Source: an uncultured Muribaculaceae bacterium (GTDB lineage: Bacteria > Bacteroidota > Bacteroidia > Bacteroidales > UBA932). From it: a stretch of 64,000 bases of DNA. The stretch covers positions 94,275 through 158,274 of the forward strand of contig CAYWIW010000001.1 of the NCBI GenBank assembly GCA_964458425.1, in the 5' to 3' direction. Made by a program: the position numbers and the translations under genes. Below the pieces are notes generated by a model that saw nothing but the letters and a program-made list of their open reading frames with translations, made no database searches and was not told the origin of the DNA. Below, one piece after another: positions 36,813-41,703 of this stretch; position 1 is the stretch's first letter, and each line of letters starts with the position of its first letter.

Positions 36813-38366
36813 CTATTTCCTCTCAAGGGTCTGGAGAAAGAATGACTTGCGAGGGGAATCGGAGGCGGAGATACGGCCTTTTAGACGCCACACACGGTTG
36901 TAGATGATGCTCTTCTCCTTGCCGAACAAGGCTGAGACAGTCGTGCTTGAAAAACCGGCGGCCACAAAACTGAACAGCAGGAAATCATCCTCTTTCCACG
37001 ACGGGAACGAAGAACGTAGAGCGGACATCACTCCGTCCATCGTCTGGTCAAGCATATTCTCAAGCTCCTTCTGGACCTTCCTGTCATTGCGAAGGCCATC
37101 GACTATCGATTTCACCTCCTTAAGAATCTTAGGCTGAAGATTGTCTGTGCCTTCGTAAACATAGTACTGCTCGCAAAGACGCTCCAGGACATTGAAGCGG
37201 TCCAGACCATACCTCGGACTCGAAAGACGGGACTTAAGGTCTTCTGCCATATTCATATACCTCTCCGTCTCGGCCTTCTCCGCCTCCAATCTCCTGCGGG
37301 ACTCAGCTTTCTGGATGAAATAGATGACCGCGACTGCGGCCAATGCCAGCAAAGAGGAAAGCGCCAATACCCAGATCTTAAGACGGGAAGCCCTGAGCCT
37401 CTCGGCATCCGCGGAAGCCTTTCCCTGAATATAATCACGCTGGCTAGCGGACACCGCCCCGGAAAGAGCGGCTGACTGGCTTCTGTCGGCATAGTCCAGA
37501 ACTTTCTCCAAAGCGGCAAGAGCCCGCCCTTTGTCACCGGTGCGGGAAGCAATCTGATACTCCCTGAAGTTGACGTCGGCTGTTTCGGCCTCTGTCTCGG
37601 CGGAAGATGCGGCGGCTGAAAGCCATTCCCTAGACTCCGCCGGAAGACCGGCAATGGAACAGGCATAAGCCAGGATACCCTTGTCCGCACAGGTCAGCGG
37701 ATAACCAAGTTCATCGGCGGCACGCCCCAAAAGGTCTATCGCCAAAGCCGCATCCAGCGTGTCCTTGCTCACCGCCAAGGCCGCATACGACTCAAGGCAA
37801 CGAACCTCCAGAAGTGTGTCCCTCAACTCGTGAGCGTCATACAGGACACTTTTGAATATGTCCTCCGCAGGCCCGTACTTTCCAAGCCCCGACTCGGCCT
37901 GTCCGATTTCCAAGAGTGCCTGCTGGGATTCCCGCTGATAACCAGCCACTTTGAAGGCCTCTGCCGAACGGGCGAGATACATCATCTCGTCTGCCGGATT
38001 GCCGGAAGCATTGCAGATGTGGGCAAGGTCATAACAGATTCTGGCCACACGAAGAGTGTCTGCGGCCTCGGCGGAATGGTCAAGAGCCTTGGTGTAGGAA
38101 ACGATGGCCGCCGACAAGTCCCCGTCATTGAACTGGTTACGTCCAAGACAATAAAGCGCCCTGCCCTTCTGGCTGTCATCCCCCCGCCTGACGAACCAGT
38201 CCGCCATTTTAGCCACATCATCGGTGGCCAAGGTGTTGACATATCCAAGCTCCTGCTCCACATTGTCCAAAACCACATCCATCTGTTTGAACAGACCCGT
38301 GTCGCACGAGGAAAAAGCCGCAAGAAACGGCAAAAGCAAGAAAAACAAGCCGGTTGGTCTCATCAT
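36813..38366 (-). CDS. TPR-repeat membrane protein with C-terminal HTH-like domain (one-component regulator-like)
   Basis: Lipobox-like AFSSC; TPR helices (RALYCLG, AAIVSYTKALD); TM IWVLALSSLLALAAVAVIYFI; C-terminal FSSTTVSALFGKEKSIIYNRVWRLK. Confidence 0.7.
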   Translation of the reverse strand: MMRPTGLFFLLLPFLAAFSSCDTGLFKQMDVVLDNVEQELGYVNTLATDDVAKMADWFVRRGDDSQKGRALYCLGRNQFNDGDLSAAIVSYTKALDHSAEAADTLRVARICYDLAHICNASGNPADEMMYLARSAEAFKVAGYQRESQQALLEIGQAESGLGKYGPAEDIFKSVLYDAHELRDTLLEVRCLESYAALAVSKDTLDAALAIDLLGRAADELGYPLTCADKGILAYACSIAGLPAESREWLSAAASSAETEAETADVNFREYQIASRTGDKGRALAALEKVLDYADRSQSAALSGAVSASQRDYIQGKASADAERLRASRLKIWVLALSSLLALAAVAVIYFIQKAESRRRLEAEKAETERYMNMAEDLKSRLSSPRYGLDRFNVLERLCEQYYVYEGTDNLQPKILKEVKSIVDGLRNDRKVQKELENMLDQTMDGVMSALRSSFPSWKEDDFLLFSFVAAGFSSTTVSALFGKEKSIIYNRVWRLKGRISASDSPRKSFFLQTLERK

Positions 38367-38386: not shown

Positions 38387-39400
38387 CTATTCGGCCTCGC
38401 TCCAGCCCTGGGCGAGAATCGGATGCTCAATGCCGTCAGGAGAGACGAGCACCGTACCGACCTCAGGCTGAGCAAGATGTCCGATGATATCAAAGGTCTG
38501 GAAGTCCCGGCGGAACTTCTCCGCGGAGAGAATCGGAATCGTGAACAGCAGCCTGAAATCATCGCCACCGTTCATCGCCGCCGAGATAGGATCTATGTTC
38601 AGCTCCTTTCCGAAAGCGAAGCTGTTGCCCTCGAACGGAATCTTGTCCGCATAGACCTTCACTCCAAGCCCCGAGTCGCGGGAAAGCCTCTTGACAGCGT
38701 CTGAGAGTCCGTTGACCACAAGATAGCCGTTGGAAGGATAAATCTGTGTCTCCTCAAGCCTTGAGACCACGGAATTGCCCAGCTCAGGCTTCAGATAGCT
38801 GCCTATCAGCATCTTGTATTTATCAAGCTGCGGCTGACGGCTGTCATCTTCGGTCTGATTGAAACCCTTCTTCTCCCTCTCGAGAATCTGCTGTCCGAGG
38901 AACGCCGCGCCAAGACTTCCTGAGACGCAGACAAGATCCTTGCTTCTGGCCTTGACGGTGCGCCCTTTTGTGAGCTTGAACTCCTCGCCCACAGCCGAAA
39001 CGCTTATGGTAAGCCCGTTCGGAGAAGGCGCCAGATCAAGATCCACGGAACCGAATCCGTGTTCCCTCGCCGCTACGGTCACTCCGCTCCAAAGCTCTTT
39101 CACGTGCCTGAAGTCCAGCTTCGCCGAGACCCCAAGTCGGACGGACAGCAGACGAGGATGCGACATCGCCGCATAGAGTTCTCCCGCCACAGCGACAACT
39201 GATTTATAGCCAAGATGTTTGAGCGGGAAATAGGTCAGATCGAAATCCACGCCTTCCACCAGGAGTCTCGATGCCGAGCAAAGCACGCTTCCGGCCTGAG
39301 GCTCAAAAGAAGACCTCTCCAGCCGCCTGAACCCGCTGCCGTCGAAAAGCAGATCCACCGCCTGCACCTTGCCATATTCGTTAAAAGTCTTTTCAGTCAT
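38387..39400 (-). CDS. thiL: Thiamine-monophosphate kinase (ThiL) homologue with degenerate active site
   Basis: LLVEGVDFDLTYFPLKHLGYKSVV, DLVCVSGSLGAAFLG, AMNGGDDFRLLFTIP, IIGH, LAQGW all match Bacteroidales ThiL; the metal-binding Asp motifs are absent. Start MTEKTF (39400). Confidence 0.85.
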   Translation of the reverse strand: MTEKTFNEYGKVQAVDLLFDGSGFRRLERSSFEPQAGSVLCSASRLLVEGVDFDLTYFPLKHLGYKSVVAVAGELYAAMSHPRLLSVRLGVSAKLDFRHVKELWSGVTVAAREHGFGSVDLDLAPSPNGLTISVSAVGEEFKLTKGRTVKARSKDLVCVSGSLGAAFLGQQILEREKKGFNQTEDDSRQPQLDKYKMLIGSYLKPELGNSVVSRLEETQIYPSNGYLVVNGLSDAVKRLSRDSGLGVKVYADKIPFEGNSFAFGKELNIDPISAAMNGGDDFRLLFTIPILSAEKFRRDFQTFDIIGHLAQPEVGTVLVSPDGIEHPILAQGWSEAE

Positions 39401-39424: not shown

Positions 39425-39451
39425 CAAAATTAGCACAATTTGTTAAATTTG
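39425..39451. promoter_or_regulatory. Divergent -7 elements for thiL-like (minus) and EEP (plus)
   Basis: TAATTTTG on minus (39425-39432); TAAATTTG on plus (39444-39451). Confidence 0.6.
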
Positions 39452-39497: not shown

Positions 39498-40343
39498 ATG
39501 AAAAGAGCATTTATAGTCCTGATGGCGGCGCTAATGGTTATGCCGTTCTGTCTGGCCGCAAACAATGGCAGACCTGCTGACATCACTGTGATTTCCTACA
39601 ACATCCGGGTAGGCACGGCCAAAGACGGCACCAATTCGTGGGAGTTCCGTTATCCGGCATCCGCGATGATGATAACAGACCAGAAGCCGGACATATTCGG
39701 TCTTCAGGAAGCGCTTGACTTCCAGTTCAAATACATTGAGGAATATTGCCGCGACTACAAAGGAGTCGGAGTCGGACGCGAGGACGGCAGGCACAAGGGC
39801 GAGCATATGGCCATCTTCTACAACAAGAAGACTGTCAAGTTGCTGAAATGGGGGACATTCTGGCTCTCAGAGACTCCGGAAAAGCCTTCGATGGGCTGGG
39901 ACGCGGCCTGCTTCCGTTCAGCCACCTGGGCTTTGATGAAGGACAAGGCCAGCGGCAAGAAGTTCTACTACGTCAACACGCACCTCGACCACGTCGGCTG
40001 GGAGGCACGCAAGAACGGTCTCAAGCTCATCGTGGACAGAATCAAGGACATCAATCCTGAAAACTACCCGATGATTCTGACGGGAGATTTCAATATGAGA
40101 ATCGACAGACCCGAGTTCGACGACCTGAAGAAGGCTATGCAGGACGCCCGCGAGACCGCGGTCAGGACAGACCACCACAACACATTCAACGACTGGGGCA
40201 AGGCATCATCCGACAACATCATAGACTACATCTGGTTCAAAGGCTTCAGCAGCTGCACCGAATACGAGACAATAACGAAAGAATATCTGAACAGGGCATA
40301 CATATCAGACCACTACCCTATCAAGGCCACTCTGATATTCTGA
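39498..40343 (+). CDS. Secreted endonuclease/exonuclease/phosphatase family protein
   Basis: Signal peptide; SYNIR, GLQEA, NTHLDH, TGDFN, IDYIW, SDHYPI. Confidence 0.92.
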   Translation: MKRAFIVLMAALMVMPFCLAANNGRPADITVISYNIRVGTAKDGTNSWEFRYPASAMMITDQKPDIFGLQEALDFQFKYIEEYCRDYKGVGVGREDGRHKGEHMAIFYNKKTVKLLKWGTFWLSETPEKPSMGWDAACFRSATWALMKDKASGKKFYYVNTHLDHVGWEARKNGLKLIVDRIKDINPENYPMILTGDFNMRIDRPEFDDLKKAMQDARETAVRTDHHNTFNDWGKASSDNIIDYIWFKGFSSCTEYETITKEYLNRAYISDHYPIKATLIF

Positions 40344-40431
40344 TCCAGCGGACGGAAAACCGCCCGCCGCCGGGCTGAGAACCCGACAACAGCGGGACAA
40401 ACCCTTATGACGATAACCCAAAGACAATTTA

Positions 40432-41703
40432 TTGACAATGAAAAGATTGATAACCGCACTGATAGTTGCGTCGCTCAGTATATCCGCCCTGGCGCAAAGC
40501 GGGCTGAAAACCCGGGAGCCGGAGAGTCACGGAATGGACTCCGGGAAGCTGGCTCAGATTGACAAGGTAGTCGAGAACGCCATAGAGGCCAAAGAGATTC
40601 CCGGTGCCGTGATTTCCGTGGTCAGGGACAACGAAATCGTATTCCTTAAGGCCTACGGCAACAAATCCGTCGTTCCCTACGTCGAGCCGATGGGCAAAGA
40701 AACTGTTTTCGACCTCGCCTCAGTCAGCAAATGCGTTGGAACGACCTTGTCGTTTATGCAGCTGATAGAGAACGGACTCGTCCGTCTGACCGACAACGTA
40801 GAAAGGTACATCCCTGATTTCAAGCCTTGGAAAGACCCGGAGACCGGCGAGACTGTCAACATCACGGTCAGGGATCTTCTGACCCACTCTTCCGGCCTGT
40901 CTCCCTACATCAACACCAACGCCTTTGTCAATGAATACGGCGAGAACAATCCTGACGAACTGGAGAAATACATAGCGACAGCCGTGAAAAGGAATTTCCG
41001 TCCGGGAAGCGATTTTATGTACAGCTGCCTGAATTTCATTACATTACAGAGAATCCTCGAAAAAGTGACAGGTAAGAAGCTCTATGAATATGCCCAGGAA
41101 CACATCTTCGACGTTCTCGGACTAAGACACACCTGCTACTTCCCGTTAGCCTCCGATCCGGCAGCCGCAAACGCCTCTGAGCTGAAGTCGCTCTGCGCTC
41201 CTACCGAGGTTCAGGCAGACGGAAAGCCTTTGCTCGCACAGGTTCACGACCCGATCGCGCGCAGGGTAATGAGCGGCAACTCCGGCAACGCCGGGGTGTT
41301 CTCCAATGCCGGGGATCTCTCCGTGATCTGCGCTGCCATTATGAACGGCGGCGCCCTTTCGGACAAAAAGGGCAGACCGCTGGAGCGCACAAGAATACTC
41401 AGCCCGGCCACAGTCCGCCTGATGACCACGGTCCCAAGCGAGAACGACCCTTCGGTAGGCCGCGCCCTCGGATGGGACAAGAACAGCAGCCACAGCGGTT
41501 TGCGAGGCGACCTGTTCAATCCGGAGACCACGATTATGCACACAGGCTACACCGGTACGTCAATCGTGATGGATCTGGAAAGCAAGACGGCCATCGTGCT
41601 GCTGACCAACAGGGTTCACCCTAAGGACAAAGGCGCGGTAGGAAGGCTGCGGGCGCTGGTCTCCAACATCGTGGCGGGTTCAATCGTCGAGACAAGGGAA
41701 TAA
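40432..41703 (+). CDS. Serine hydrolase, beta-lactamase/AmpC-like family, secreted
   Basis: FDLASVSK (SxxK), DLLTHSSGL, FMYSCLNF, GNAGVFS, HTGYTG, LLTNRVHP. Confidence 0.9.
   Translation: MTMKRLITALIVASLSISALAQSGLKTREPESHGMDSGKLAQIDKVVENAIEAKEIPGAVISVVRDNEIVFLKAYGNKSVVPYVEPMGKETVFDLASVSKCVGTTLSFMQLIENGLVRLTDNVERYIPDFKPWKDPETGETVNITVRDLLTHSSGLSPYINTNAFVNEYGENNPDELEKYIATAVKRNFRPGSDFMYSCLNFITLQRILEKVTGKKLYEYAQEHIFDVLGLRHTCYFPLASDPAAANASELKSLCAPTEVQADGKPLLAQVHDPIARRVMSGNSGNAGVFSNAGDLSVICAAIMNGGALSDKKGRPLERTRILSPATVRLMTTVPSENDPSVGRALGWDKNSSHSGLRGDLFNPETTIMHTGYTGTSIVMDLESKTAIVLLTNRVHPKDKGAVGRLRALVSNIVAGSIVETRE

Follow-up and report, generated by a model that had tools for sequence, protein, structure and literature searches.

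A ThiL-like protein with a remodelled ATP-Mg site in Cryptobacteroides-type gut Bacteroidales: a probable kinase-dead, neofunctionalised ThiL paralogue

Introduction

The window (the whole stretch of DNA analysed here, 64,000 nucleotides long) carries on its minus strand a full-length gene whose product is built like thiamine-phosphate kinase, ThiL (EC 2.7.4.16), and in which the former ATP-Mg site has been remodelled. The question that this locus raises is what such a protein does: it could still phosphorylate TMP or another substrate, sense a thiamine compound together with its neighbour, have taken on a new function, or be on its way to becoming a pseudogene. The reading that, from sequence comparison, best explains the evidence presented below, and to which we give a probability of roughly 0.65, is that of a kinase-dead, neofunctionalised ThiL paralogue.

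Results

Organization of the locus

The features considered are the following:

36813..38366, minus strand: gene for a 517-aa protein, beginning 20 nt past the stop codon of the ThiL-like gene
38387..39400, minus strand: ThiL-like coding sequence, 337 aa plus stop, predicted PurM/ThiL two-domain fold with the former ATP-Mg site remodelled
39425-39432, minus strand: TAATTTTG, match to the Bacteroidetes -7 box, about 25 nt upstream of the ThiL-like ATG
39444-39451, plus strand: TAAATTTG, match to the Bacteroidetes -7 box, positioned for the divergent gene
39498-41703, plus strand: a gene of the endonuclease/exonuclease/phosphatase (EEP) family, encoding 281 aa with a signal peptide, and one of the beta-lactamase family, encoding 423 aa, both divergent from the ThiL-like gene

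The ThiL-like reading frame starts with an ATG, runs without interruption over 337 residues and has the length of its homologues, as the preliminary description of this DNA had stated. A longer reading of 349 aa from a GTG start was rejected, as it would engulf the promoter region and misfits the homologues (335-343 aa). The host-like codon usage that had been noted is also found, the gene having a GC content of 0.556 and a GC3 of 0.66, within reach of the 0.64-0.72 of the adjoining genes. Concerning the promoter, both TAATTTTG and TAAATTTG lie within the 97-bp divergent intergenic region, match the Bacteroidetes -7 promoter consensus (TAnnTTTG) and, standing back to back, resemble two Bacteroidetes promoters in divergent orientation. 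Across the window, however, the motif is not enriched (25 found vs 19.5 expected), so that a promoter for the ThiL-like gene is plausible at most and the location of the minus-strand box in this intergenic region is suggestive only; of the promoter element proposed earlier, the box stands and the wording "promoter-like" is as far as it can be taken.

Family assignment and fold

Against the NCBIfam thiL model TIGR01379 the ThiL-like protein scores 116 bits over positions 38-318, which is below the curated cut-off of 184.15 bits (a whole-protein score), with canonical Bacteroidales ThiLs scoring 290-330 bits. The Pfam AIRS domain (PF00586) reaches 22.4 bits vs a gathering cut-off of 24, and AIRS_C (PF02769) was not reported. 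By sequence, the closest solved structures are ThiLs, the Aquifex entries 1vqv and 3c9r being matched at an E-value of 1e-12, or 1e-17 when a family profile is used. An AlphaFold2 model, a check that the preliminary description had called for, was built from 69 orthologues and shows a confident ThiL fold (pLDDT 91.7, pTM 0.89). In a Foldseek search of the PDB with this model the best 17 matches are all ThiL (E 1e-20 to 1e-23, TMt 0.73-0.85), followed by HypE, SelD and PurM. The modelled PurM/ThiL fold is unambiguous, and the earlier assignment of the protein as a ThiL homologue is upheld by these matches and by the alignments to Aquifex, Pseudomonas and Bacteroidales ThiL.

The protein shares with characterized ThiLs (AaThiL 3C9T, AbThiL 5DD7, PaThiL 8YKU) the two-domain PurM-type fold and the length, at a sequence identity of ~20-24% to the solved ThiLs and ~30-35% to Bacteroidales ThiL. 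Common to both are also the HLGYK, GxLG, KPE and GGxDY/F-LLFT motifs, the C-terminal QGW and the equivalents of Tyr189 and Asp122 (PaThiL numbering).

Remodelling of the former active site

In PaThiL, Asp30, Asp47, Asp75 and Asp211 are strictly conserved metal ligands and Asp122, which is Asn in AaThiL, binds Mg1 (PMC13254938). Two loops are conserved in ThiL, Gly28-Asp29-Asp30 and Ser213-Asp214-Gly215-Leu216; TMP is held by hydrogen bonds to His54 and Tyr189, and its phosphate, which the second loop reaches via metal, is bridged to Asp214 (PMC13254938). The residues of the ThiL-like protein were mapped onto these positions through HMMER alignments to the Aquifex and Pseudomonas ThiL structures and through a MAFFT alignment to Bacteroidales ThiL, with concordant results, and were counted over 69 orthologues:

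PaThiL D47: R45 in the window copy; R/K in 58/69 orthologues
PaThiL H54: D52 in the window copy; D in 69/69
PaThiL D75: E74 in the window copy; E in 67/69
PaThiL D122: D122 in the window copy; D kept in 65/69
PaThiL Y189 equivalent: Y in 64/69
PaThiL D211: L227 in the window copy; L/F in 66/69
PaThiL S213: V229 in the window copy
PaThiL D214: N230 in the window copy; R/H/K in 62/69
Glu of GGEDYE (the Glu after GGEDY): R283 in the window copy; R/K in 64/69
C-terminal W: W in 68/69

Asp is gone from all four of the strictly conserved metal-ligand positions, with Glu at one of them and Arg/Lys or hydrophobic residues at the other three. The GDDAA sequence is missing, and with it the GDD loop, which in ThiL grips the ribose-phosphate of ATP; TTD has become ASR, xSD AGE, GGD DLD and DISDG LVVNG, so that the DxSDG loop is gone too, and the S-D-G-L stretch reads V-N-G-L in the window copy and T/S-R/H/K-G-L across the family. 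The preliminary description had regarded all of the Mg/ATP motifs as replaced. This is right for GDDAA and for the changes to ASR and LVVNG, but the Asp of GGD persists as D122 in most of the family, and the change from NxSD to VAGE, though real, is a conservative replacement of Asp by Glu. Its view that the EGVxF, GGxD(Y/F) and Trp elements on the TMP side are retained needs a similar correction: GGxD(Y/F) and the C-terminal Trp are indeed there, but the EGVxF element is without the TMP-contacting His, which is Asp in every orthologue. Of the three TMP contacts of PaThiL only the Tyr189 equivalent is kept, His54 being Asp and Asp214 being Arg, His, Lys or Asn in the family. It should be noted that at least one ThiL that looks canonical elsewhere (P0224) also has Asp for the His of EGxHF, and hence this exchange alone is not disabling.

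The active-site replacements are non-random and are conserved across the family. Variability is highest in the stretch that formerly held the GDD loop (residues 20-40, entropy ~2.2-2.35 bits vs 1.17 bits overall) and lowest in the C-terminal domain (0.77-0.81 bits). Many family-specific polar residues are invariant, namely D52, K94, D96, Y202, D234, K248, N277, H308 and E325, and an acidic set composed of D52, E74 and D122, which would lie in the cleft, is conserved.

The D47 and D211 equivalents and the GDD loop are shared across PurM-family ATP sites. Because the nucleotide-phosphate loop and three of the four invariant metal ligands are lost, ATP-dependent phosphorylation of TMP is, judging by structure-function relationships in the ThiL/PurM family, very unlikely to persist.

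Coexistence with canonical thiL and the thiamine pathway

A set of 25 same-genus genomes was screened with TIGR01379, where scores of ~85-130 bits correspond to the ThiL-like gene and ~190-320 bits to canonical thiL. The ThiL-like gene is present in 20 of the 25, including 9/9 of those with a completeness of 90% or more. Seven genomes have canonical thiL; in six of these it accompanies the ThiL-like gene, and because of this coexistence the latter has to be considered a separate paralogue. Six genomes contain thiE, and in three of them (G005, G008, G021) its distance to canonical thiL is 36 bp to 1.6 kb; 16 contain thiamine pyrophosphokinase (TPK), mostly without canonical thiL; within the genus, thiE plus canonical thiL on one side and TPK on the other are nearly complementary. 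In these relatives thiE tracks canonical thiL and not the ThiL-like gene, whose presence is independent of that of thiE, canonical thiL or TPK.

The genome from which the window derives is 94% complete, and neither canonical thiL nor thiE was found in it. The search for a second, canonical thiL that had been suggested at the outset gave none, and a cryptic copy was dismissed, as the only other PurM-fold match is purM itself. TPK is present (G000 C8:18360-19007), and from its gene content the organism looks auxotrophic for thiamine, obtaining its TPP through TPK. A TMP kinase is unneeded here, since thiE and canonical thiL are missing and TPK is present, and it would be redundant in those relatives where canonical thiL coexists; the ThiL-like gene has nevertheless been retained.

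In 16 genomes of other Bacteroidales families, canonical thiL is present and no ThiL-like match was obtained. Positional orthology with canonical thiL of other Bacteroidales was considered and rejected, as the 1.5-kb flanks of those thiL genes are without glyS, dnaE, secDF, folK and the DUF59, DUF4923 and EEP genes.

Distribution and selection

A word-indexed search retrieved more than 5000 homologues of the ThiL-like protein, the best 120 of which show 73-99% identity and lengths of 332-380 aa, nearly all of them 335-347 aa. An exhaustive search of representatives yielded 104 clusters at E < 1e-30, and a genome scan gave 80 species-level loci with 56-85% identity. The carriers among those loci are mostly labelled as Candidatus Cryptobacteroides or as Bacteroidales MAGs, from guts and rumens; besides these there are loci labelled Muribaculaceae, Alistipes, Bacteroidaceae or Rikenellaceae, and a handful from bins whose assignment is evidently wrong. 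All checked copies at the species loci are intact, and an apparent in-frame stop in one of them (L021) was discarded, being the natural stop, two codons earlier.

Values of dN/dS range from 0.05 to 0.15, with a median of 0.095 (Nei-Gojobori, 27 pairs with dS < 1.2); versus the window copy, dN is 0.10-0.29 with dS saturated. The ThiL-like gene is under strong purifying selection. The preliminary description had it as an intact gene kept under selection and had proposed to look for the same losses, with dN/dS below 1, in orthologues; both ideas are confirmed, with ~80 intact species loci, losses seen across the 69 orthologues and dN/dS near 0.1.

Apart from these loci, one genome of the genus with both canonical thiL and thiE has, close to the end of a contig, a ThiL-like copy interrupted by an in-frame TGA (G003:C68:40-903), either a possible pseudogene or the result of faulty assembly.

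In a quick ML tree the query belongs to a clade of seven representatives (SH-aLRT 100), located among Bacteroidota ThiL sequences and beside other partly degenerate lineages. Elsewhere in Bacteroidota, ThiL-like lineages differ in which of the metal-binding aspartates they have lost (representatives P0136, P0137, P0140, P0141, P0146, P0155, P0157, P0160, P0163, P0167, P0170, P0185, P0201, P0211, P0228 and P0231), and the degeneration of ThiL may have been repeated, or may have been early with later divergence.

Gene neighbourhood

The neighbourhood of the ThiL-like gene was analyzed at 76 loci. Downstream in the window, in the same direction and at the distance of 20 nt noted previously, lies the gene for the 517-aa protein. 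This protein has a lipoprotein-like signal, a single hydrophobic span and, at its C-terminus, a helical domain; beyond weak matches to TPRs it has no family assignment. No Pfam or NCBIfam match to an HTH was found in that domain. An AF2 model of the protein has a pLDDT of 78, and Foldseek gives weak but recurrent matches of its last ~60 residues to LuxR/NarL/DosR-type HTHs (E > 0.4). The HTH that had been attributed to this neighbour is weakly suggested by these matches; it is plausible on the model, and the protein is possibly a one-component regulator that spans the membrane and belongs to an undescribed family. A SusR-type identity was ruled out, the protein being unlike the SusR-like protein of a related locus and without a Pfam or NCBIfam HTH match.

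The gene is co-directional and downstream at 12 of the 76 loci, convergent on the opposite strand at 6 and absent from 58, and it is missing even from relatives at 82-85% identity; in some relatives it overlaps the ThiL-like gene by 1-4 nt. An operon with the TPR-TM protein as a general feature was rejected on the 12/76 count. The 517-aa protein is a neighbour in certain lineages and no fixed partner, and the sensing module of the preliminary description finds no support in this comparison.

On the other side, no gene adjoins the ThiL-like gene as often as the divergent EEP gene, which is directly upstream at 29/76 loci and is followed by the beta-lactamase-family gene at ~20. The end of glyS lies -4 to +13 nt from the ThiL-like start at 11/76 loci, where the overlap or abutment of glyS stop and ThiL-like start suggests translational coupling; these loci include L076, L085, L095 and L096 (about 6001) and seven others, and around them folK and a DUF59 gene are seen upstream, with dnaE and secDF nearby. 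In the genome of the window glyS is on another contig. A DUF4923 gene follows the ThiL-like gene at 11/76 loci, the dnaE, secDF, folK and DUF59 genes recur in its vicinity, and further neighbour clusters contain cydAB, DPP-IV, beta-lactamase-family, flotillin/NfeD, Tpx and rpsL genes. No thiamine-related gene is a recurrent neighbour across the 76 loci. In a 51%-identical relative (L016:2742-5831) the genes after the ThiL-like gene are those for DUF4923, inorganic pyrophosphatase and a split transketolase, the last of these enzymes being dependent on TPP; the split transketolase was met near the ThiL-like gene in this one lineage only.

Discussion

The proposed kinase-dead, neofunctionalised paralogue agrees with what is commonly expected of a pseudoenzyme, as the ThiL-like protein combines the loss of essential residues with purifying selection and wide conservation. 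In the mechanism that we propose, Arg or Lys at three formerly acidic positions would shape a cleft for an anionic, probably phosphorylated small ligand, which would be bound directly and not via Mg2+, together with the acidic set D52/E74/D122, Tyr195, Tyr202 and the C-terminal Trp. Another possibility is that the C-terminal domain, whose conservation is unusually high, serves a protein partner. Either way the protein would have a core housekeeping role in Cryptobacteroides-type Bacteroidales. The charge reversals, the acidic set, the Tyr and Trp residues and the conserved C-terminal domain point to a new and specific function, and the protein probably binds a ligand or a partner.

A bolder reading, possible but tentative, is that the ThiL scaffold has come to bind a phosphorylated metabolite without metal, or to act on it as a new enzyme, the metabolite being TMP/TPP or an unrelated one. 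Arg and Lys would then replace the Mg2+-binding aspartates, and the gene would ancestrally have been co-translated with glycyl-tRNA synthetase.

Metal binding and some catalysis might still take place through D52, E74 and D122, and an unlikely alternative is that the protein is a divergent but active kinase or other enzyme, which uses these residual acids and the new basic residues on TMP or on another phosphorylated substrate. The retention of D122, the Mg1 ligand of PaThiL, and of a Glu for D75 would suit such an enzyme, and the many invariant family-specific polar residues fit specific chemistry as well as they fit binding. Against it weigh the loss of the GDD loop and of the D47 and D211 equivalents, the region of the former GDD loop being the least constrained one, as well as the thiamine pathway itself, in which a TMP kinase is unneeded in the own genome (TPK, no thiE) and redundant beside canonical thiL.

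A sensor of TMP or TPP that forms a signalling module with the downstream TPR-TM-HTH protein appears improbable. The two genes are indeed co-directional and close, 20 nt apart in the window and overlapping by 1-4 nt in some relatives, the TMP-side Tyr189 equivalent and the C-terminal Trp are kept, and the last ~60 residues of the neighbour weakly resemble a LuxR-type HTH; but the neighbour is co-directional at so few loci, convergent at others and mostly absent, also at 82-85% identity, Asp takes the place of the TMP-contacting His, Asp214 has become Arg, His, Lys or Asn, no thiamine genes recur nearby, and no HTH match is significant. Least credible of all, to the point of being nearly negligible, is a decaying thiL remnant, i.e. 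a pseudogene in the making in a thiamine auxotroph. That ThiL activity is dispensable in the own genome, which lacks thiE and has TPK, is what such decay would need, but a dN/dS of ~0.1, intact full-length copies in ~80 species, replacement residues that are themselves conserved, and the presence of the gene in genomes with canonical thiL all speak against it.

Neither pseudoenzymes nor PurM-fold proteins in non-canonical roles are new as such. PurL has an auxiliary pseudo-active site, a PurM-fold half-site in a non-ancestral role, and one of the Foldseek matches of the AF2 model is 9hjt, the Zincore transcription complex, which contains SEPHS1, a non-canonical member of the PurM superfamily. 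In SEPHS1 and the PurL pseudo-site, as would be the case in the ThiL-like protein, the PurM fold has been kept while its role departs from the ATP-dependent reaction of the ancestor. Both, however, still bind nucleotide, whereas the ThiL-like protein has lost the nucleotide-phosphate ligands, and there is no sequence kinship beyond the superfamily. From ThiL itself it differs in scoring below the family cut-off, in being without the GDD loop, the D47/D211 equivalents and the DxSDG loop, in having Asp for the TMP-contacting His and Arg or Lys at three acidic positions, and in its gene, which is unlinked to thiE or thi operons and coexists with true thiL in some genomes. In the literature searched we found no ThiL-derived pseudoenzyme, and nothing relevant on Cryptobacteroides and thiamine. 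The ThiL-like protein offers a clean, strongly selected and consistently remodelled case for the repurposing of a PurM-fold kinase.

The result also bears on annotation. Some public records call these proteins 'thiamine-phosphate kinase', and therefore B1 reconstructions may credit Cryptobacteroides with a ThiL step that it most likely lacks, so that vitamin-B1 pathway predictions from gut and rumen metagenomes may be inflated for this lineage. Since the gene belongs to the core set of this lineage, which is abundant in gut and rumen and uncultured, the role of its product is probably physiologically relevant. If the protein does bind or convert a phosphorylated metabolite, it would represent a core, previously unrecognised vitamin-B1-related or housekeeping factor in Cryptobacteroides-type gut Bacteroidales.
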